Positions 1 to 9,270 of a DNA stretch of 64,000 bases are shown one piece after another. The stretch is from the NCBI RefSeq assembly GCF_988243305.1, contig NZ_OZ547136.1, one strand, 5' to 3'. Position 1 is the first letter of the stretch, and each line of letters opens with the position of its first letter. A program made the translations under genes and the position numbers. The notes below the pieces were generated by a model. That model saw only the letters and a program-made list of their open reading frames with translations. It had not been told where the DNA came from and made no database searches.

Positions 1-1039
1 TTTTTTTTGAAACATGTCCCCGAAACGGGCTTAAGGGTCCGGAAGGGGATAAATCCTGCTCCAGAACATTATAGTGCTCAATAAATATTTTTTGCGCTTC
101 AGGCGAAAAATGCAGACAATACCGTTCATCCTCACTGGATTTTTCAATACTGCCTCTGGCCAGTTCCATTAATCGTTCATGAAATGCCGTTAATGATCCT
201 CCCGGAATCACAGCTCCGTTAATAAAGCGTTTCCCCTGCGTGGTTGCAGGTTTACTGATAAGACAACGGGCAAGAAAACCACTGTCCCTGGCAACAGAAC
301 CTTTTCGCTCCATATATCGGTCAAAAAGACCGGGTTGCACCATGAGGGATAACGTCATTCTGGCATTTTCAATCATCTGTTCGGGTTCATTCTTTCTGTC
401 CACAGACAATACAGAGCCATCCCACATTTTGTTAATAAAAGGCAACTCAGACAGGGTATATCCATCAAATATAATACCGGCTTCATCTGACATAATACCA
501 ACTGAACGCCATTTACCACAAAGCTGATTCTTAATTGCCGCAGTCGTGGCATCATTAAAAATGAATTTATACCTCACAGGTTCTTCCGCACTGTTTTTCT
601 GAAGTACTTCCAGTTGTCTGAGGGTTTCTGACTCATCCGCGCCTTTGCGGAGTTCTTTATTCAGTTTTGACAACAATGCTTTTTTCTGAGCCTTTAAAAG
701 CTCTTCCTTGTTTTTCCAGACAGCCAGTTCACTTTTGTATCTGGAATATAACTGCATCTCCTGCTGGTACAGGGGCTTCATTAATAATTTGTCCACTGCG
801 GTTTTTCGTTCTCCGGACTCGGCAAGCGTCAGGAAAAAAAGAGAGACCGGCCCCCGCAGTGTATTCAGTCTGCAGACATCAATCAGATTCTGGCAGACAA
901 GTGAAACAGCGCCCAGGGCAGACGCTGCCACAAGCCCAAGGGGAGCCTGCGTAATTTGCTGAGCTTCAATAACGGCATCACGAATGAGTGGAGGCAGCGA
1001 ACTCAGGGGAAACTCATCACAAGGCTGACCGAATGACAT
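1..1039 (-). CDS. hypothetical island-associated protein; C-terminus cut by window start
   Basis: Manual reverse-strand translation from ATG at 1039-1037 (MSFGQPCDEFPLSSLPPLIRD...) stays open to position 2 (about 346 codons); absent from ORF track because no stop lies inside the window; only short + strand ORFs overlap it. Confidence 0.45.
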   Translation of the reverse strand, partial: MSFGQPCDEFPLSSLPPLIRDAVIEAQQITQAPLGLVAASALGAVSLVCQNLIDVCRLNTLRGPVSLFFLTLAESGERKTAVDKLLMKPLYQQEMQLYSRYKSELAVWKNKEELLKAQKKALLSKLNKELRKGADESETLRQLEVLQKNSAEEPVRYKFIFNDATTAAIKNQLCGKWRSVGIMSDEAGIIFDGYTLSELPFINKMWDGSVLSVDRKNEPEQMIENARMTLSLMVQPGLFDRYMERKGSVARDSGFLARCLISKPATTQGKRFINGAVIPGGSLTAFHERLMELARGSIEKSSEDERYCLHFSPEAQKIFIEHYNVLEQDLSPSGPLSPFRGHVSKK

Positions 1040-2269
1040 AGTAACCTCACTATACACAGATATAAAAGCACTGCAATTCTGGCTATTAATAGCAAAAATA
1101 GCAGTCAAATCAATATGAGGTAAAATTTTTTGTTGATTTAATGGTTAAATAATAACCACAGTGTATTTTGCTGCTGAAGAAAGACAAAATGAATCTGTGT
1201 GTCCCCTCCTTCCCTTCGGAGCACATCCACTATTCAAATTTTACACAACCACGTACGAACAAAAAGCATCATCCCGGGTATTGCAGATACCGGTTTCCTG
1301 CCGGGAAGAATCATAAACAGAACACCGGGAATAACGCCTTCAGGAATCACCCCCCCTCCTGAAGAAGAATAAAATAAAGAAGACTACAGTTCCTGCACTG
1401 AATGCTGAGTACAATATTTTATGGACAGGATGACATTTTTATAAATAACAAAAACCATTTAATACTGATACATCAATAAAATACTTCTTCCCTGCTGACA
1501 CAGATAAAATGCACCATTTTTTCTTCAAATACTTCTGTATAATCGCCAGCCAATGATGAGAATGGATTAAAATAACACTTCTTCGACAAACACAAAAACA
1601 GCCTTCATTTTACATCATCATCCAGTTTCAGTTAACCCCGGACGAGCGACAGTGTTTCAGTACAGGAATTAAAAGCCAGCTTTTGCTCAGTAAAACACAC
1701 TCAACTAATAATATCTCAGCAGATATTATCCTGACCAGGACACCTCACATTACTGAATTCTCTTCCGACAGTATCACTGCACAAATAAAAAAGAACGGGA
1801 TAAATATTCAGACCGGAAGAATGGTGTCACAAAAGCATTTAATCATTACGCATGACCAGGAAGGGAAACACTTAACCACATGGTATCAACAGATATCATT
1901 ACGTGTGCACTCTTATAAAAAACACACAGAAGAAGTAAGATAATTATAAACGTAAATTTAATATCTCCCACTGACATCTCCCCCACAATACACTAAAAAA
2001 TACTCACAGCAGTAAACACAGACACACCTGATAATCATACAGCCGATAAATATTTTCCCCTTTACGGAGAAATCAGCCTGCTGTTTAACAATAACGGCGT
2101 ATTTTCATGGAAGGAGATCACCCAGTAACGGATAAGTCCTGATCTCCTTCATGTTAATACGCAACAATCCCATCGATTCAAAACAATTTCAGACAGATAT
2201 TATCTCCGTGAATCCCCCGCCACCTTTCCGGTGCGCGGGGTTTTGTCTTTTTTCACCGGGAATACATGT

Positions 2270-3142
2270 ATGAATCCGTCTGATGCCATTGAGGCAATTG
2301 AAAAACCGCTCTCCTCCCTGCCTTACTCACTTTCCCGTCACATCCTGGAACATCTGCGCAAACTCACCAGTCACGAACCCGTGATTGGCATTATGGGTAA
2401 AAGCGGGGCCGGTAAATCCTCACTCTGTAATGCACTGTTTCAGGGGGAGGTCACCCCGGTCAGTGATGTTCACGCCGGCACCCGGGAAGTGCGGCGCTTC
2501 CGTCTGAGTGGCCACGGTCACAGCATGGTTATCACTGACCTGCCCGGGGTGGGCGAGAGCCGGGACAGGGATGCAGAGTATGAAGCCCTGTACCGTGACA
2601 TTCTGCCCGAACTGGACCTGGTGCTGTGGCTGATTAAAGCCGATGACCGCGCCCTGTCTGTGGATGAGTATTTCTGGCGACACATCCTGCACCGGGGACA
2701 TCAGCAGGTGCTGTTTGTGGTGACGCAGGCCGACAAAACGGAGCCCTGCCATGAATGGGATATGGCCGGCATTCAGCCTTCTCCCGCACAGGCACAGAAC
2801 ATTCGGGAGAAAACGGAGGCGGTATTCCGTCTGTTCCGGCCCGTACATCCGGTTGTTGCCGTATCGGCCCGCACCGGCTGGGAACTGGATACGCTGGTCA
2901 GTGCGCTAATGACAGCACTTCCCGACCATGCCGCCAGTCCCCTGATGACCCGCCTGCAGGACGAGCTGCGCACGGAATCTGTCCGCGCTCAGGCCCGTGA
3001 ACAGTTTACCGGTGCGGTGGACCGGATATTTGACACGGCGGAGAGCGTCTGTGTTGCCTCTGTTGCCCGTACGGTTCTGCGTGCCGTCCGTGACACGGTG
3101 GTCTCTGTTGCCCGCGCTGTATGGAACTGGATTTTCTTCTGA
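2270..3142 (+). CDS. yeeP: YeeP/YfjP/YkfA-family GTPase (50S ribosome-binding GTPase-like)
   Basis: ORF 2231..3142; P-loop GIMGKSGAGKSSLCN and G3-like DLPGVGE motifs; ORF-track start is GTG at 2231, first in-frame ATG (MNPSD...) is at 2270; start choice uncertain. Confidence 0.7.
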   Translation: MNPSDAIEAIEKPLSSLPYSLSRHILEHLRKLTSHEPVIGIMGKSGAGKSSLCNALFQGEVTPVSDVHAGTREVRRFRLSGHGHSMVITDLPGVGESRDRDAEYEALYRDILPELDLVLWLIKADDRALSVDEYFWRHILHRGHQQVLFVVTQADKTEPCHEWDMAGIQPSPAQAQNIREKTEAVFRLFRPVHPVVAVSARTGWELDTLVSALMTALPDHAASPLMTRLQDELRTESVRAQAREQFTGAVDRIFDTAESVCVASVARTVLRAVRDTVVSVARAVWNWIFF

Positions 3143-3226
3143 ACAGTCTGCCAGGGAAATGCCTGATAACATTACGTTAACCAACTGAAAACATGACACA
3201 AACCCCTCATACTCCTCCTGTTTCTC

Positions 3227-3255
3227 TTGCGTGACCGCCTTGTCGTTAATAGAAT
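3227..3255 (+). promoter_or_regulatory. candidate sigma70 promoter of flu/agn43 (TTGCGT-17 bp-TAGAAT)
   Basis: -35-like ttgcgt 3227-3232, 17-bp spacer, -10-like tagaat 3250-3255, immediately upstream of the GATC cluster. Confidence 0.5.
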
Positions 3256-3260
3256 AAAAC

Positions 3261-3296
3261 GATCGATAAAACAGGTATTGATCGTTGCTATCGATC
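3261..3296. promoter_or_regulatory. three clustered GATC (Dam) sites; agn43 Dam/OxyR phase-variation region
   Basis: GATC at 3261-3264, 3280-3283 and 3293-3296 within 36 bp, about 220 bp upstream of the flu ATG; matches the known three-GATC OxyR operator architecture of agn43. Confidence 0.7.
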
Positions 3297-3513
3297 GTTT
3301 ATAGTGGTTAATGGTCTGCGAAAAGGCAGCTGAATCTCTTCATCATGCAGAACGGAATTGCACACAACGGACTGATACTTCTCTGGCGGATGAGAGAGGG
3401 GAAGCATTTATGTCCGGGAAAAACCACTTTATCTGAGCATGCTGTTTTGTACCTGCCGGTATCCACATTTGTGGGTACCGGCTTTTTTATTCACCCTCTG
3501 TAAGGAAAAGCTG

Positions 3514-6500
3514 ATGAAACGACATCTGAACACCAGCTACAGGCTGGTATGGAATCACATTACGGGCACCCTGGTGGTGGCCTCCGAACTGGCCCGCTCA
3601 CGGGGAAAACGCGCTGGTGTGGCGGTTGCGCTGTCTCTTGCTGCTGTCACATCAGTCCCGGCACTGGCTGCTGACAAGGTTGTACAGGCGGGAGAAACCG
3701 TGAACGACGGAACACTGACAAATCATGACAACCAGATTGTCCTCGGTACGGCCAACGGAATGACCATCAGTACCGGTCTGGAGTATGGGCCGGATAACGA
3801 GGCCAATACCGGCGGACAATGGATACAAAATGGCGGTATCGCCAACAACACTACTGTCACCGGTGGTGGTCTTCAGAGAGTGAATGCCGGAGGAAGCGTT
3901 TCAGACACGGTTATCAGTGCCGGAGGCGGACAGAGCCTTCAGGGGCAGGCAGTGAACACCACTCTGAACGGCGGTGAGCAGTGGGTACATGAAGGCGGGA
4001 TTGCAACGGGTACCGTCATTAATGAGAAGGGCTGGCAGGCCATCAAATCCGGCGCAGTGGCAACCGACACGGTTGTGAATACCGGCGCGGAAGGGGGACC
4101 GGATGCGGAAAATGGTGATACCGGGCAGACCGTCTACGGAGATGCCGTACGCACCACCATCAATAAAAATGGTCGTCAGATTGTGGCTGCTGAAGGAACG
4201 GCAAATACCACTGTGGTTTATGCCGGCGGCGACCAGACTGTACATGGTCACGCACTGGATACCACGCTGAATGGGGGGTACCAGTATGTGCACAACGGCG
4301 GTACGGCGTCTGGCACTGTTGTAAACAGTGACGGCTGGCAGATTGTCAAAAATGGGGGTGTGGCCGGGAATACCACCGTTAATCAGAAGGGCAGACTGCA
4401 GGTGGACGCCGGTGGTACAGCCACGAATGTCACCCTGAAGCAGGGCGGCGCACTGGTTACCAGTACGGCTGCAACCGTTACCGGCATAAACCGCCTGGGA
4501 GCATTCTCTGTTGTGGAGGGTAAAGCTGATAATGTCGTACTGGAAAATGGCGGACGCCTGGATGTGCTGACCGGACACACAGCCACTAATACCCGCGTGG
4601 ATGATGGCGGAACGCTGGATGTCCGCAACGGTGGCACCGCCACCACCGTATCCATGGGAAATGGCGGTGTACTGCTGGCCGATTCCGGTGCCGCTGTCAG
4701 TGGTACCCGGAGCGACGGAAAGGCATTCAGTATCGGAGGTGGTCAGGCGGATGCCCTGATGCTGGAAAAAGGCAGTTCATTCACGCTGAACGCCGGTGAT
4801 ACGGCCACGGATACCACGGTAAATGGCGGACTGTTCACCGCCAGGGGCGGCACACTGGCGGGCACCACCACGCTGAATAACGGCGCCATACTTACCCTTT
4901 CCGGGAAGACGGTGAACAACGATACCCTGACCATCCGTGAAGGCGATGCACTCCTGCAGGGAGGCTCTCTCACCGGTAACGGCAGCGTGGAAAAATCAGG
5001 AAGTGGCACACTCACTGTCAGCAACACCACACTCACCCAGAAAGCCGTCAACCTGAATGAAGGCACGCTGACGCTGAACGACAGTACCGTCACCACGGAT
5101 GTCATTGCTCAGCGCGGTACAGCCCTGAAGCTGACCGGCAGCACTGTGCTGAACGGTGCCATTGACCCCACGAATGTCACTCTCGCCTCTGGTGCCACCT
5201 GGAATATTCCCGATAACGCCACGGTGCAGTCGGTGGTGGATGACCTCAGCCATGCCGGACAGATTCATTTCACCTCCACCCGCACAGGGAAGTTCGTACC
5301 GGCAACCCTGAAAGTGAAAAACCTGAACGGACAGAATGGCACCATCAGCCTGCGTGTACGCCCGGATATGGCACAGAACAATGCTGACAGACTGGTCATT
5401 GACGGTGGCAGGGCAACCGGAAAAACCATCCTGAACCTGGTGAACGCCGGCAACAGTGCGTCGGGGCTGGCGACCAGCGGTAAGGGTATTCAGGTGGTGG
5501 AAGCCATTAACGGTGCCACCACGGAGGAAGGGGCCTTTATCCAGGGGAATAAGCTGCAGGCCGGTGCCTTTAACTACTCCCTCAACCGGGACAGTGATGA
5601 GAGCTGGTATCTGCGCAGTGAAAATGCTTATCGTGCAGAAGTCCCCCTGTATGCCTCCATGCTGACACAGGCAATGGACTATGACCGGATTCTGGCAGGC
5701 TCCCGCAGCCATCAGACCGGTGTAAGCGGTGAAAATAACAGCGTCCGTCTCAGCATTCAGGGCGGTCATCTCGGTCACGATAACAACGGCGGTATTGCCC
5801 GTGGAGCCACGCCGGAAAGCAGCGGCAGCTATGGCTTCGTCCGTCTGGAGGGTGACCTGCTCAGAACAGAGGTTGCCGGTATGTCTGTGACCGCGGGGGT
5901 ATATGGTGCTGCTGGCCATTCTTCCGTTGATGTTAAGGATGATGACGGCTCCCGTGCCGGCACGGTCCGGGATGATGCCGGCAGCCTGGGCGGATACCTG
6001 AATCTGATACACAACGCCTCCGGCCTGTGGGCTGACATTGTGGCCCAGGGAACCCGCCACAGCATGAAAGCCTCATCGGACAATAACGACTTCCGCGTCC
6101 GGGGCTGGGGCTGGCTGGGTTCGCTGGAAACCGGTCTGCCCTTCAGTATCACTGACAATCTGATGCTGGAGCCGCAACTGCAGTACACCTGGCAGGGACT
6201 CTCCCTGGATGACGGCCAGGATAACGCCAGTTATGTGAAGTTCGGGCATGGCAGTGCACAACATGTGCGTGCCGGCTTCCGTCTGGGCAGCCACCACGAT
6301 ATGAACTTTGGTAAAGGCACCTCATCCCGTGACACCCTGCGCGGCAGTGCCAAACACAGTGTGCGTGAACTGCCGGTGAACTGGTGGGTACAGCCTTCTG
6401 TTATCCGCACCTTCAGCTCCCGGGGGGGCATGAGCATGGGTACAGCCGCAGCCGGCAGTAACATGACGTTCTCACCGTCACAGAATGGTACGTCACTGGA

Positions 6501-6633
6501 CCTGCAGGCCGGACTGGAAGCCCGTGTCCGGGAAAATATCACCCTGGGCGTTCAGGCAGGTTATGTCCACAGCGTCAGCGGCAGCAGCGCTGAAGGCTAT
6601 AACGGTCAGGCCACGCTGAATGTGACCTTCTGA
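3514..6633 (+). CDS. flu: antigen 43 self-associating autotransporter
   Basis: ORF 3439..6633; canonical Ag43 N-terminus MKRHLNTSYRLVWNHITGTLVVASELARS begins at ATG 3514 after aaggaaaag; long beta-helical passenger with repetitive G/T/N-rich repeats and C-terminal beta-barrel ending in TLNVTF. Confidence 0.9.
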   Translation: MKRHLNTSYRLVWNHITGTLVVASELARSRGKRAGVAVALSLAAVTSVPALAADKVVQAGETVNDGTLTNHDNQIVLGTANGMTISTGLEYGPDNEANTGGQWIQNGGIANNTTVTGGGLQRVNAGGSVSDTVISAGGGQSLQGQAVNTTLNGGEQWVHEGGIATGTVINEKGWQAIKSGAVATDTVVNTGAEGGPDAENGDTGQTVYGDAVRTTINKNGRQIVAAEGTANTTVVYAGGDQTVHGHALDTTLNGGYQYVHNGGTASGTVVNSDGWQIVKNGGVAGNTTVNQKGRLQVDAGGTATNVTLKQGGALVTSTAATVTGINRLGAFSVVEGKADNVVLENGGRLDVLTGHTATNTRVDDGGTLDVRNGGTATTVSMGNGGVLLADSGAAVSGTRSDGKAFSIGGGQADALMLEKGSSFTLNAGDTATDTTVNGGLFTARGGTLAGTTTLNNGAILTLSGKTVNNDTLTIREGDALLQGGSLTGNGSVEKSGSGTLTVSNTTLTQKAVNLNEGTLTLNDSTVTTDVIAQRGTALKLTGSTVLNGAIDPTNVTLASGATWNIPDNATVQSVVDDLSHAGQIHFTSTRTGKFVPATLKVKNLNGQNGTISLRVRPDMAQNNADRLVIDGGRATGKTILNLVNAGNSASGLATSGKGIQVVEAINGATTEEGAFIQGNKLQAGAFNYSLNRDSDESWYLRSENAYRAEVPLYASMLTQAMDYDRILAGSRSHQTGVSGENNSVRLSIQGGHLGHDNNGGIARGATPESSGSYGFVRLEGDLLRTEVAGMSVTAGVYGAAGHSSVDVKDDDGSRAGTVRDDAGSLGGYLNLIHNASGLWADIVAQGTRHSMKASSDNNDFRVRGWGWLGSLETGLPFSITDNLMLEPQLQYTWQGLSLDDGQDNASYVKFGHGSAQHVRAGFRLGSHHDMNFGKGTSSRDTLRGSAKHSVRELPVNWWVQPSVIRTFSSRGGMSMGTAAAGSNMTFSPSQNGTSLDLQAGLEARVRENITLGVQAGYVHSVSGSSAEGYNGQATLNVTF

Positions 6634-6753
6634 CAGAACCATCGCCTCTCTGTGGTCCCGGTCATCATGATCGGGACCCGGACCGGCGCAACGGATATTC
6701 AACGCCACATTCGCTGGCATTAACAATAACATGATATTCATCACGGAGTGACT

Positions 6754-9270
6754 ATGTTACAGATAGTCGGCGCGCTGATCCTGCTGATCGCAGGATTTGC
6801 CATTCTTCGCCTTTTGTTCAGAGCATTAATCAGCACGGCTTCTGCGCTGGCAGGGCTCATATTGCTGTGTCTGTTCGGCCCGGCCTTACTGGCTGGCTAT
6901 ATCACCGAACGCATAACCCGGTTGTTCCATATTCGCTGGCTGGCAGGCGTATTTCTGACGATTGCCGGAATGATCATCAGCTTCATGTGGGGACTTGATG
7001 GTAAACATATCGCGCTGGAGGCTCACACCTTTGACTCTGTGAAATTTATTCTGACCACCGCTCTCGCCGGTGGTCTGCTGGCTGTTCCCCTGCAGATCAA
7101 AAACATTCAGCAGAACGGGATCACACCAGAAGATATCAGCAAGGAAATTAACGGGTATTACTGCTGTTTTTATACTGCCTTTTTCCTTATGGCGTGTTCT
7201 GCATGCGCACCATTGATCGCGTTACAGTACGATATTTCACCGTCACTGATGTGGTGGGGCGGGTTGTTGTACTGGCTGGCTGCATTAGTGACGCTGCTAT
7301 GGGCGGCCAGCCAAATCCAGGCGCTGAAAAAACTGACCTGTGCCATCAGCCAGACACTGGAAGAACAACCGGTGCTCAACAGTAAATCGTGGCTGACCAG
7401 TTTGCAAAACGATTACAGCCTTCCTGACTCACTGACGGAGCGCATCTGGCTGACGCTCATTTCTCAACGGATTTCCCGGGGAGAGCTGAGGGAATTTGAA
7501 CTGGCAGACGGAAACTGGTTACTGAACAATGCCTGGTATGAAAGAAACATGGCAGGGTTTAACGAACAGTTGAAAGAGAACCTGTCATTCACACCTGATG
7601 AACTGAAAACGCTCTTCCGGAACCGCCTGAATTTATCACCGGAAGCGAATGACGATTTTCTCGATCGTTGCCTGGACGGCGGTGACTGGTATCCCTTTTC
7701 AGAAGGTCGCCGTTTTGTATCATTCCATCACGTGGATGAGCTTCGTATCTGTGCCTCCTGCGGGCTGACAGAAGTACATCATGCCCCGGAAAATCATAAG
7801 CCGGATCCGGAATGGTACTGCTCCTCTCTTTGTCGCGAAACAGAAACACTGTGTCAGGAAATTTATGAACGCCCTTACAACAGCTTTATTTCCGATGCAA
7901 CGGCGAATGGTCTGATTCTCATGAAACTGCCGGAAACCTGGAGTACAAATGAGAAAATGTTTGCTTCCGGAGGGCAGGGACATGGGTTTGCCGCTGAACG
8001 GGGAAACCATATTGTCGACAGAGTCCGTCTGAAAAACGCACGGATCCTCGGTGATAATAATGCCAGAAATGGAGCAGACAGACTGGTCAGCGGAACAGAA
8101 ATCCAGACGAAATATTGTTCAACTGCAGCCCGTAGCGTCGGTGCGGCATTCGACGGACAAAACGGACAGTATCGTTACATGGGAAATAATGGCCCCATGC
8201 AACTGGAAGTCCCCCGTGATCAGTATGCCGGCGCTGTTGAAACCATGAGGAATAAGATCCGCGAAGGTAAAGTACCCGGTGTAACCGATCCCGCAGAAGC
8301 ATCCCGGCTGATTCGTCGGGGACATCTGACTTATACTCAGGCCCGTAATATCACCCGGTTCGGGACCATCGAATCGGTCACTTATGATATTGCCGAGGGT
8401 TCGGTTGTCAGTCTGGCGGCCGGAGGGATCAGTTTTGCCCTGACGGCATCGGTCTTCTGGCTCAGCACCGGCGATCGCGATGCTGCCCTGCAGACAGCTG
8501 CTGTCCAGGCAGGAAAAACCTTCACCCGCACACTGGCTGTCTACGTCACAACCCAGCAACTCCACCGGCTCAGTGTTGTTCAGGGTATGCTGAAGCACAT
8601 TGATTTTTCGACTGCCAGCCCGACTGTTCGACTGGCTCTTCAGAAGGGGACCGGTGCAGGAAATATCAGTGCCCTGAACAAAGTGATGAAGGGTACGCTG
8701 GTGACATCTCTGGCACTGGTAGCTGTCACAACCGGCCCTGACATGATCAAAATGTTGCGGGGACGGATCTCCGGTACGCAGTTCATCAGGAATCTTGCCG
8801 TGGCATCTTCCGGTGTGGCAGGTGGTGCTGTCGGGTCAGTGGCGGGCGGAATACTGTTCAGTCCACTGGGACCATTTGGTGCACTGACAGGGCGTGTGGT
8901 TGGCGGTGTTCTGGGGGGAATGATTGCCTCCGCTGTATCAGGAAAAATTGCCGGAGCGCTGGTTGAAGAAGATCGCGTCAAAATTCTGGCAATGATTCAG
9001 GAGCAGGTGACATGGCTTGCCGGCAGTTTCCTGCTGACCGGACATGAGATTGAAAATCTGAACGAGAATCTGGCCCGTGTTATCGATCAGAATGCTCTGG
9101 AGATCATTTTCGCCGCCGGTATACAACAACGGGCCGCGACCAATATGTTAATCAAACCACTGGTGGTCAGTATCATCAGGCAACGCCCCGTCATGGAATA
9201 TGATGCATCCCATCTCGGCAATATGGTTAACCGACTGGAAGAAGCATTACCCCCGGAGTTACCGGCATAA
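6754..9270 (+). CDS. yeeR: YeeR-like inner membrane protein (enlarged, about 838 aa)
   Basis: ORF 6748..9270; several hydrophobic N-terminal helices and a glycine-rich hydrophobic C-terminal block; sits directly after flu as yeeR does in CP4-44; ATG at 6754 preferred over GTG 6748 (ggag 5 nt upstream). Confidence 0.55.
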   Translation: MLQIVGALILLIAGFAILRLLFRALISTASALAGLILLCLFGPALLAGYITERITRLFHIRWLAGVFLTIAGMIISFMWGLDGKHIALEAHTFDSVKFILTTALAGGLLAVPLQIKNIQQNGITPEDISKEINGYYCCFYTAFFLMACSACAPLIALQYDISPSLMWWGGLLYWLAALVTLLWAASQIQALKKLTCAISQTLEEQPVLNSKSWLTSLQNDYSLPDSLTERIWLTLISQRISRGELREFELADGNWLLNNAWYERNMAGFNEQLKENLSFTPDELKTLFRNRLNLSPEANDDFLDRCLDGGDWYPFSEGRRFVSFHHVDELRICASCGLTEVHHAPENHKPDPEWYCSSLCRETETLCQEIYERPYNSFISDATANGLILMKLPETWSTNEKMFASGGQGHGFAAERGNHIVDRVRLKNARILGDNNARNGADRLVSGTEIQTKYCSTAARSVGAAFDGQNGQYRYMGNNGPMQLEVPRDQYAGAVETMRNKIREGKVPGVTDPAEASRLIRRGHLTYTQARNITRFGTIESVTYDIAEGSVVSLAAGGISFALTASVFWLSTGDRDAALQTAAVQAGKTFTRTLAVYVTTQQLHRLSVVQGMLKHIDFSTASPTVRLALQKGTGAGNISALNKVMKGTLVTSLALVAVTTGPDMIKMLRGRISGTQFIRNLAVASSGVAGGAVGSVAGGILFSPLGPFGALTGRVVGGVLGGMIASAVSGKIAGALVEEDRVKILAMIQEQVTWLAGSFLLTGHEIENLNENLARVIDQNALEIIFAAGIQQRAATNMLIKPLVVSIIRQRPVMEYDASHLGNMVNRLEEALPPELPA

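Follow-up and report, generated by a model that had tools for sequence, protein, structure and literature searches.

An AT-rich non-coding gap between yfjI and a GTPase gene in an Escherichia coli genomic island: candidate control sites at the edges and probable filler between them

The window is the whole stretch of 64,000 nucleotides that was analyzed (contig NZ_OZ547136.1), and its positions 1–2269 span the boundary between two modules of an E. coli genomic island of the CP4-57/CP4-44 type. On the minus strand, yfjI, a gene of the DUF3987 helicase family, occupies positions 1–1039. A YeeP/YfjP/YkfA-like GTPase gene follows on the plus strand (2270–3142; Pfam MMR_HSR1, E = 8.9e-15; "GTPase family protein" in RefSeq) and is the first gene of a GTPase-Ag43-...-CbeA/CbtA block. 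These divergently oriented genes are separated by a gap of 1,230 bp with about 62% AT, which is present at full length in approximately 1,870 of 5,426 complete E. coli genomes.

The assignment of yfjI was based on the open frame, Pfam and RefSeq. A sequence-only reading of this DNA had described a minus-strand frame running open from an ATG at 1039 to the window edge, and re-translation to base 2 indeed gave 346 codons with zero stops, corresponding to the 5' 70% of the gene (346/494 codons). The remaining part of about 446 nt, with the stop codon, falls outside the window, in agreement with the description as a truncated island gene. The frame was also correctly reported as missing from the list of open reading frames, because the tool that produced the list omits ORFs running off the end of the source sequence. 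While the gene had been said to belong to no recognizable family, PF13148 (DUF3987) matched with E = 1.3e-95, and DUF3987 was thus rightly named among the families to check by Pfam profile search. On a full-length copy (L001:8555–10039, minus strand) the match reached 321 bits (gathering cutoff 27) and spanned profile positions 1–363 of 364. In RefSeq, in records 100% identical over window positions 1–2300, this CDS is the 494-aa "YfjI family protein" WP_001297234.1.

Two nucleotide-binding-like motifs were found in YfjI, SGERK(T/S) at residues 75–80 (Walker A-like) and MSDE at 183–186 (Walker B-like), of which S75–K79 and M183–E186 were invariant in an alignment of 13 sequences. Both motifs fall within the part encoded in the window, and the Walker A motif is deviant, with R where the second G is expected. 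The DUF3987 protein AgaPH is an ATP-dependent 5'–3' helicase of mobile elements (PMC11724360), and by analogy YfjI is a putative helicase; however, AgaPH combines PriCT with DUF3987, while the window YfjI has neither a PriCT domain nor an adjacent primase. The AlphaFold model of YfjI was poor (pLDDT 60 overall), all Foldseek matches, including MCM, had E > 0.05, and a sequence-profile search of the PDB with YfjI was empty.

YfjI of the K-12 cryptic prophage CP4-57 (b2625) likewise showed a full-length DUF3987 match and kept the Walker A/B-like motifs, and the window protein was about 50% identical to the type found in K-12 and other genera. The window island and CP4-57 also share an AlpA-like HTH protein and an inovirus-Gp2/YfjJ-like gene, and the palindrome upstream of yfjI described below is found in K-12 as well. 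In the window, yfjI has the reverse orientation relative to alpA, with the GTPase gene on the far side of the 1.2-kb gap, a layout seen only in E. coli. In loci of other genera found via YfjI homologues (n = 16) the order was alpA-yfjI-yfjJ and the gap was absent; these loci are informative on the palindrome only.

The gap had been delimited earlier as a very AT-rich stretch at 1040–2230 without a convincing gene. It is real, but its end lies at 2269 and not at 2230, as the GTPase ATG is at 2270. The GC content in 300-nt windows was 35–42%, compared to 48.7% for the whole window; nevertheless, "very" overstated the AT-richness, since the AT content is higher in five other segments of the window. 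Only short ORFs are present, as had been noted, the longest with 86 aa (1683–1943). In the RefSeq E. coli records sampled, among them strain AR_0104, no CDS is annotated in the gap, and no ORF of at least 15 aa was intact across all four lineages compared, except for an 18-aa frame inside the conserved GTPase leader. Pfam and PHROG scans of the gap in six frames gave no trace apart from one sub-threshold chance match. With the Rfam 15 covariance models nothing was detected in 1–2270 at E ≤ 1; the sole match within 1–8000 was IS102/IsrC at 3259–3495. Sliding-window folding z-scores were significant only at a palindrome derived from ISEc12 and at the GTPase leader hairpin (both described below), and were about 0 across 1150–1950 on both strands.

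The sequence-only reading had suggested that such a spacer could hide a small RNA, a short toxin or H-NS-bound regulatory DNA. Small RNA genes and type I toxin/antitoxin pairs do sometimes sit in AT-rich island spacers. Promoter-like hexamers were found on both strands of the middle part of the gap, termed filler here, and a 46-aa ORF with the hydrophobic run FTFIIILLLLCVFY is located at 1846–1986 (minus strand). However, this ORF is frameshifted in L003 and L030, broken in L028 and intact in no other lineage, no other toxin candidate was conserved, and the promoter-like sites (5, with a shuffle expectation of 3.4) were not above chance. In addition, Rfam was empty, the folding signal was confined to the two elements named above, and the filler outpaces synonymous sites and tolerates IS insertions. 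We therefore consider a concealed small RNA or type I toxin/antitoxin pair most improbable. The suggestion of regulatory DNA fared better, as candidate control sites were read from the sequence at both ends of the gap. With regard to H-NS, the gap is only moderately AT-rich, and the nucleation motif had three matches with at most two mismatches, a density of 2.4 per kb compared to a background of 1.5 per kb, which is not striking.

The filler (1106–2095) is AT-rich and non-coding, with a strong strand asymmetry (plus strand A.37, C.23, G.15, T.25). In the comparison of four lineages, which recombine so that weak or short constrained elements could escape detection, filler blocks were 68–79% identical, compared to 81–89% at 4-fold sites of the two flanking genes, yfjI and the GTPase gene. 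Indels of 1–71 nt, some of them not multiples of three, separate the lineages; IS600 and IS3 insertions are found in the filler of other strains, and two MITE-like insertions have been tolerated. As the filler diverges faster than 4-fold sites and tolerates insertions, we regard it as unconstrained in sequence. Iterons and k-mer enrichment did not exceed Markov shuffles, and no repeat family was found beyond chance.

The strand asymmetry is common to all lineages, and a status as "junk" leaves it unexplained; other AT-rich segments of the window do not resemble the filler in this respect. It fits the alternative that the filler is a decayed cargo gene, perhaps a minus-strand gene for a membrane protein, from a slot of variable content ahead of the GTPase module: hydrophobic runs appear in the frames of the minus strand, which is rich in T and G, and the slot before the conserved 95 nt does vary, with rnlAB in K-12, a 383-aa hypothetical protein in SF-088, and SIR2 or TrlF neighbours. 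Nevertheless, no similarity to Pfam or PHROG families was detected in any frame, and the plasmid and E. coli collections contained no DNA related to the filler outside these islands of E. coli. A decayed gene thus appears unlikely.

At the yfjI edge a 36-bp palindrome is located at 1070–1105, recognized by its inverted repeat and cross-genus conservation, as a candidate operator/promoter element; an origin site is the less likely option. Its sequence on the yfjI strand, ACTGCTATTTTTGCTATTAATAGCCAGAATTGCAGT, comprises four GCTATT-like hexamers arranged as two inverted pairs with a spacing of about 9 bp. Across 14 sequences the core TGCTATTT...TAGC...GC showed no variation, while the flanks could not be aligned; at least nine named genera are represented (E. 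coli, K-12 CP4-57, Dickeya, Pectobacterium, Siccibacter, Mangrovibacter, Kluyvera, Erwinia, Citrobacter and MAGs). YfjI itself is about 50% identical across the genera sharing this core. The center of the palindrome lies 48 nt from the yfjI ATG in the window; among the measured copies, the distance to the start codon is 48–63 nt. There is one copy per island, and it was present upstream of every yfjI examined except L017. The palindrome is most likely an operator or core promoter, at which a dimeric or tetrameric DNA-binding protein would control yfjI. A literature search for the palindrome sequence returned nothing relevant.

The same palindrome, together with the AT-rich DNA, could instead form the replication origin of CP4-57-type islands, with YfjI or a partner binding the four GCTATT hexamers and the filler melting. 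Origins of mobile elements commonly adjoin the initiator gene (PMC6092414), and here an extremely conserved palindrome with paired hexamers lies beside a helicase gene, with AT-rich flanks in all loci, in islands that also encode an inovirus-Gp2-like protein. Residues 395–466 in the YfjI model show an H-E-H-H-E-E pattern with pLDDT 80–89, a possible C-terminal winged helix, which is a weak hint only within a poor model whose fold matches were all insignificant. As in E. coli PICIs, an AT-rich stretch adjoins a replication gene of an AlpA-carrying integrative island. However, PICI origins are located 3' of pri-rep and consist of two iteron sets flanking an AT-rich region (Fillol-Salom et al., 2018, PMC6092414), while the window DNA lies 5' of the helicase gene and contains one palindrome, no iterons and unconstrained sequence. 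Both the layout and the lack of a repeat family above chance differ from a PICI/SaPI-type origin. Moreover, the distance from the palindrome to the yfjI start is near-fixed, as in promoters, and islands of other genera keep the palindrome yet lack the filler. We judge an origin rather unlikely; if it were true, these "cryptic prophages" would replicate autonomously from a palindromic origin of viral style, and the filler would be the unwinding region. Under either function, the conserved palindrome makes the regulation, or origin, of CP4-57-type elements testable.

At the other edge, a conserved block upstream of the GTPase gene begins at 2172–2176, whatever adjoins it upstream. Within it we read a sigma-70-type promoter of the GTPase operon at 2177–2203 (plus strand; TTCAAA-15 nt-TATTAT), recognized from the sequence and its match to K-12. 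A 25-bp palindrome, TTCAGACAGATAT-TATCTCCGTGAA, is centered on the -10 element (2188–2212) and is a candidate repressor operator. Terminator scan and folds revealed a hairpin in the leader that resembles a terminator, CCCCGCCACC-TTTCC-GGTGCGCGGGG, with the T-run TTTTGTCTTTTTT after it (2215–2253, plus strand), 17 nt before the GTPase ATG. In K-12, the ykfA and yfjP promoters TTGAAA-15-TATCAT were identified by RpoD genomic SELEX as predictions within RNAP-bound peaks, not as mapped start sites (Shimada et al., 2014, PMC3946193), and we verified this architecture in the K-12 sequence. The window shares with them the 15-nt hexamer spacing, the position relative to the GTPase start, the palindrome over the -10 element and the hairpin with T-run. 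It differs in the hexamers (TTCAAA/TATTAT vs. TTGAAA/TATCAT) and in the entirely different upstream DNA; its hairpin is unrelated in sequence and begins about 11 nt nearer to the -10 element. Literature searches on a yeeP sRNA or start sites gave nothing relevant.

Eight paralogue or orthologue leaders, including those of K-12 yfjP and ykfA, a Klebsiella plasmid and Mangrovibacter, were compared. The palindrome arms TTCAG-N15-(C/G)TGAA were kept in seven of them, the left arm being TTTAG in L069. Hairpin and T-run were likewise found in seven of the eight by MFE folds, with stems unrelated between classes, and in L024 the MFE favored another pairing. Within one leader class a compensatory change, CACC/GGTG to CTCC/GGAG, was observed. 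The GTPase edge thus looks like a compact module of a sigma-70 promoter, a putative repressor site overlapping the -10 element and a GC-rich hairpin with T-run, and the hairpin would be expected to terminate or attenuate most transcripts ahead of the GTPase-Ag43 genes. It is unusual for a terminator to follow its own promoter by only a few nucleotides. Blocking read-through from upstream cargo may be the main role of the hairpin, since the conserved block of L005 contains the end of a co-directional gene located upstream. Thousands of genomes have this promoter-operator-leader-terminator module in front of the GTPase-Ag43-CbtA/CbeA block, and it could explain the usual silence of these genes.

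In Pseudomonas aeruginosa, AlpA acts by AlpA/Q-type promoter-proximal antitermination (PMC7969949), and the arrangement is similar, with a conserved element between or over the promoter hexamers and an intrinsic terminator soon after, before the first operon gene. However, P. aeruginosa AlpA is larger and 21Q-like, while the AlpA-family protein of the island has 68 aa and belongs to PF05930, with 8c3t and TorI as its only PDB matches. The two "AlpA" proteins are unrelated, and an action of the island protein as an AlpA-type antiterminator on the leader hairpin was rejected; no homologous antiterminator was identified for the GTPase module.

Antitermination also enters a further alternative, in which transcription starts near yfjI and runs through the whole gap as a long, Rho-sensitive 5' leader of the GTPase-Ag43 operon, with a boxA-like signal at the end of this leader. 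The plus-strand RNA would have more C than G (C/G 1.3–3.4) and would be A-rich and unstructured over about 900 nt. The sequence TGCTGTTTAACAA at 2079–2091 agrees with rrn boxA in 12 of 13 positions; no other one-mismatch match occurs in the 64 kb. The mismatch, however, falls in GCTCTT, the core of boxA, and the site is not conserved in L028. Furthermore, no convincing plus-strand promoter was found at the yfjI end, the gap contains no ops element, and the GTPase module works under entirely different upstream DNA in other islands. We hold this leader to be very improbable.

The reading that we prefer, and consider likely, is that yfjI is followed by a non-coding gap with control sites at its edges and about 1 kb of filler that collects mobile DNA, without a conserved hidden gene or structured RNA. 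Functions of the cis-elements are all deduced from sequence. The middle part would be unconstrained filler that spaces two divergent control regions apart and offers mobile DNA a safe place to insert; by analogy with other AT-rich island DNA it is probably coated by H-NS. A known gene family and a spacer without hidden gene or RNA remove a false lead. The by-products, cis-elements and a MITE, are of modest value to those working on E. coli islands, while the filler as a site of mobile-DNA accumulation is useful for strain markers and annotation.

One such insertion, at 2096–2163, is a MITE-like element of 68 bp derived from ISEc12 (IS21 family), of which it keeps the two terminal inverted repeats with the interior deleted. 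Its arms were about 88% identical to the ISEc12 ends (left 30/34, right 21/24 positions; ends of L054), where the parent was named from RefSeq annotation and the ends were taken from 2,581-bp copies. Like ISEc12 the element has terminal repeats including TG..CA-type ends, and like MITEs in general it is short and has no transposase; the window copy is degenerate, with G instead of T as its first base. Before full-length ISEc12 was found, the palindrome at 2097–2162 had been considered as an RNA hairpin, an SD-sequestering element, an attC or a dif-like site; these candidates were then dropped. ISEc62, an IS21-family element of the same island, was rejected as parent because its ends do not match. 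ACAAT flanks the element at 2088–2092 and 2164–2168, the left copy being offset by three extra nucleotides (AAC). Copies with unrelated flanks were found at five other loci, one of which (L026) has a clean 5-bp duplication, CCAGG; of 11 full-length ISEc12 copies, 9 carried duplications of 5 or 7 bp. In lineage L028 the element is missing precisely at its borders, which represents an empty-site allele. We found no description of an ISEc12-derived MITE in the literature searched; such miniature elements have value as strain markers and for annotation. The copy number of the element is low, with a handful of other contexts outside this island family.

The start of the window is ordinary: a gene of a known family followed by a non-coding, insertion-prone spacer, in which three small cis-elements merit annotation. 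On re-translation, the minus-strand frame remained open for 346 codons from 1039 to the window edge, as the sequence-only reading had held in describing a truncated gene here; the frame is absent from the ORF list because the ORF tool omits frames running off the source. Many complete E. coli chromosomes are 100% identical to positions 1–2300; their annotation calls the gene product a "YfjI family protein" (494 aa) and that of the neighboring gene a "GTPase family protein". The earlier reading, which recognized no family, had advised searching the full protein for DUF3987, and Pfam DUF3987 indeed covered full-length YfjI end to end (E = 1.3e-95). DUF3987 proteins contain Walker A/B motifs, and the member AgaPH is an ATP-dependent 5'-3' helicase (PMC11724360), a role predicted for these proteins earlier (PMC5862659). 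The counterparts of Walker A/B in YfjI, SGERK and MSDE, were invariant across 13 YfjI sequences, and both lie inside the window part. A sequence search of YfjI against the PDB gave no match. The AlphaFold model was poor (pLDDT 60), and its best Foldseek matches (MCM subunits, small winged-helix regulators) had E values above 0.05 throughout; a C-terminal winged-helix pattern is suggested, and the model shows nothing further.

The neighborhood is a CP4-57/CP4-44-type island. It comprises an inovirus-Gp2/YfjJ-like gene, an AlpA-family HTH gene (PF05930) and a 200-aa hypothetical, and continues with yfjI, the gap and the GTPase gene (2270–3142, plus strand). The IS102/IsrC RNA (3259–3495, plus strand; Rfam RF00124, 69.9 bits, E = 1.9e-10) lies between the GTPase and Ag43 genes, the same placement as in K-12 CP4-44, and DUF932, antirestriction, RadC and CbeA/CbtA-type genes are found farther along.

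The gap between yfjI and the GTPase gene had been described as an AT-rich stretch without a convincing gene. This description stood, as all ORFs were short (longest 86 aa) and GC in 300-nt windows was 35–42% (whole window, 48.7%); its end is at 2269 rather than 2230, directly before the GTPase ATG at 2270. Five other window segments exceed the gap in AT content. The full gap was present in 1,866 of 5,426 complete E. coli genomes, with no annotated CDS inside it in the RefSeq E. coli records sampled; outside E. coli chromosomes, matches were limited to the last ~95 nt and one 64-nt piece.

We aligned four gap lineages (the window type, also seen in L001, and the comparison records L003, L030, and L028). 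Diverged blocks were 68–79% identical, below the 4-fold degenerate sites of yfjI (81–88%) and the GTPase gene (86–94%) in the same comparison, and the identity pattern was mosaic, which indicates recombination. Indels measured 1 to 71 nt, the majority not multiples of three. Among 23 gap ORFs of at least 15 aa, only an 18-aa frame in the conserved leader before the GTPase gene was intact in all four lineages; the 86-aa ORF and a hydrophobic 46-aa ORF were broken in every other lineage. Six-frame translations matched no Pfam or PHROGs family, the Rfam scan of the gap returned nothing at E ≤ 1, folding z-scores were ~0 over 1150–1950 on both strands, and no repeated word exceeded Markov expectation. 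By these comparisons, the gap is non-coding, and most of it evolves without sequence constraint. The earlier interpretation is partly supported: the small RNA and short toxin suspected in the gap were not found, candidate regulatory DNA is present, and H-NS may bind there.

The middle part of the gap, the filler (1106–2095), shows strong strand asymmetry (plus strand: A.37, C.23, G.15, T.25). Every spacer lineage has this asymmetry, which the window's other AT-rich segments do not share. In addition, TGCTGTTTAACAA at 2079–2091 (plus strand) agrees with rrn boxA, an antitermination sequence, in 12 of 13 positions, and the 64 kb contains no other one-mismatch boxA match; the site is present in L003 and L030 and not conserved in L028. 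Together, the asymmetry and the boxA-like match leave a small probability to two rival readings: descent of the filler from a minus-strand gene that has decayed, and a Rho-sensitive leader spanning the gap.

The strongest structure signal of the gap was a 66-nt palindrome at 2097–2162 (z = -5). Short matches to its arms occur on pVir68 (downstream of cdtC), on a Yokenella plasmid and at further E. coli loci, each time between unrelated flanks. In a pattern scan of viral contigs, the left arm formed one end of a 2,581-bp element with ~28 different insertion places; this element, named ISEc12 in RefSeq, codes for IstA and IstB of the IS21 family and has 5- or 7-bp target duplications in 9 of 11 copies having both ends. 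By sequence, the window element (2096–2163) is two ISEc12 ends joined (~88% identity), a dead ISEc12. It is flanked by ACAAT on each side, and L028 lacks it exactly at its borders (AACAAT/GTTC); an ISEc12-derived copy in L026 has a clean CCAGG duplication. In one full-length ISEc12 copy (L054, 7009–7018), five extra bases, AAAAG, separate the right end from the target duplication TTAGC; this resembles the three extra bases at the window element's left junction. In strain FORC_043 (L025, 3720–4067), an annotated hypothetical gene has its GTG start within an ISEc12-derived palindrome, in the loop, and takes AAGGAG in the arm as ribosome-binding site.

L003 (3834–3904) and L030 contain another small TG...CA element, related to the first and ~67 nt long, at the site equivalent to TACG 1847–1850 of the window, flanked by a TACG duplication; L027 (4001–4098), L040, and L045 have it as well, the overall size range being about 67–98 nt. 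Its TGCGTATT terminus is also found in ISEc12, whereas its right end, ...GATGCCATTT(T/G)GCA, is different; no parent IS was identified. Given the ISEc12-derived and TG...CA insertions, the filler is a sink for mobile DNA. Full-length IS600 (L004, 1802–2958) and IS3 (L029, 1262–2424) interrupt this spacer in other E. coli strains, at ~1483 and ~1236, respectively.

An inverted repeat lies before yfjI (1070–1105). K-12 CP4-57 has it upstream of its yfjI too, as do 15 of the 16 homologous loci compared from other genera; there is one copy per island, usually between alpA and yfjI. TGCTATTT...TAGC...GC was invariant in 14 aligned sequences, whereas the intergenic DNA around it could not be aligned and YfjI itself is only ~50% identical. 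In the copies measured, the palindrome center lies 48–63 nt from the yfjI start codon. This fixed distance and the -10-like center favor a core promoter or an operator as its function. An origin is the less probable option, since PICI origins are laid out differently and iterons are absent. No description of the palindrome was found in the literature searched.

The last ~95 nt of the gap (from 2172–2176) are conserved in ~4,270 genomes and also on Klebsiella plasmids, irrespective of upstream DNA. They contain a candidate promoter, TTCAAA-15-TATTAT (2177–2203), a 25-bp palindrome over the -10 element (2188–2212) and a GC-rich hairpin with T-run (2215–2253), 17 nt before the GTPase ATG. A check of the K-12 sequence showed TTGAAA-15-TATCAT in the corresponding position for ykfA and for yfjP, and these are listed as RpoD-holoenzyme SELEX promoters (PMC3946193). 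Comparing eight diverged leaders from E. coli, Klebsiella, and Mangrovibacter, the -10 region was present in all, TTCAG-N15-(C/G)TGAA was kept in seven (TTTAG in L069), and in 7/8 the MFE structure had a hairpin with a T-run after it. Hairpin stems were unrelated in sequence between leader classes and compensated within a class. We infer that a repressible promoter and then an attenuator would precede the GTPase gene; the hairpin may additionally terminate transcription of upstream cargo. The island AlpA was considered as an antiterminator of the P. aeruginosa AlpA type and rejected, as the two proteins are unrelated. The slot upstream of the GTPase module (L005, L065, L068, L069) holds varied, often defense-like cargo: K-12 has rnlAB and abpAB there, and other islands have a SIR2 family protein, a TrlF-like ATPase or a hypothetical protein of 383 aa. 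In L068 and in L069, the gene after the GTPase gene codes for a WYL-domain regulator.
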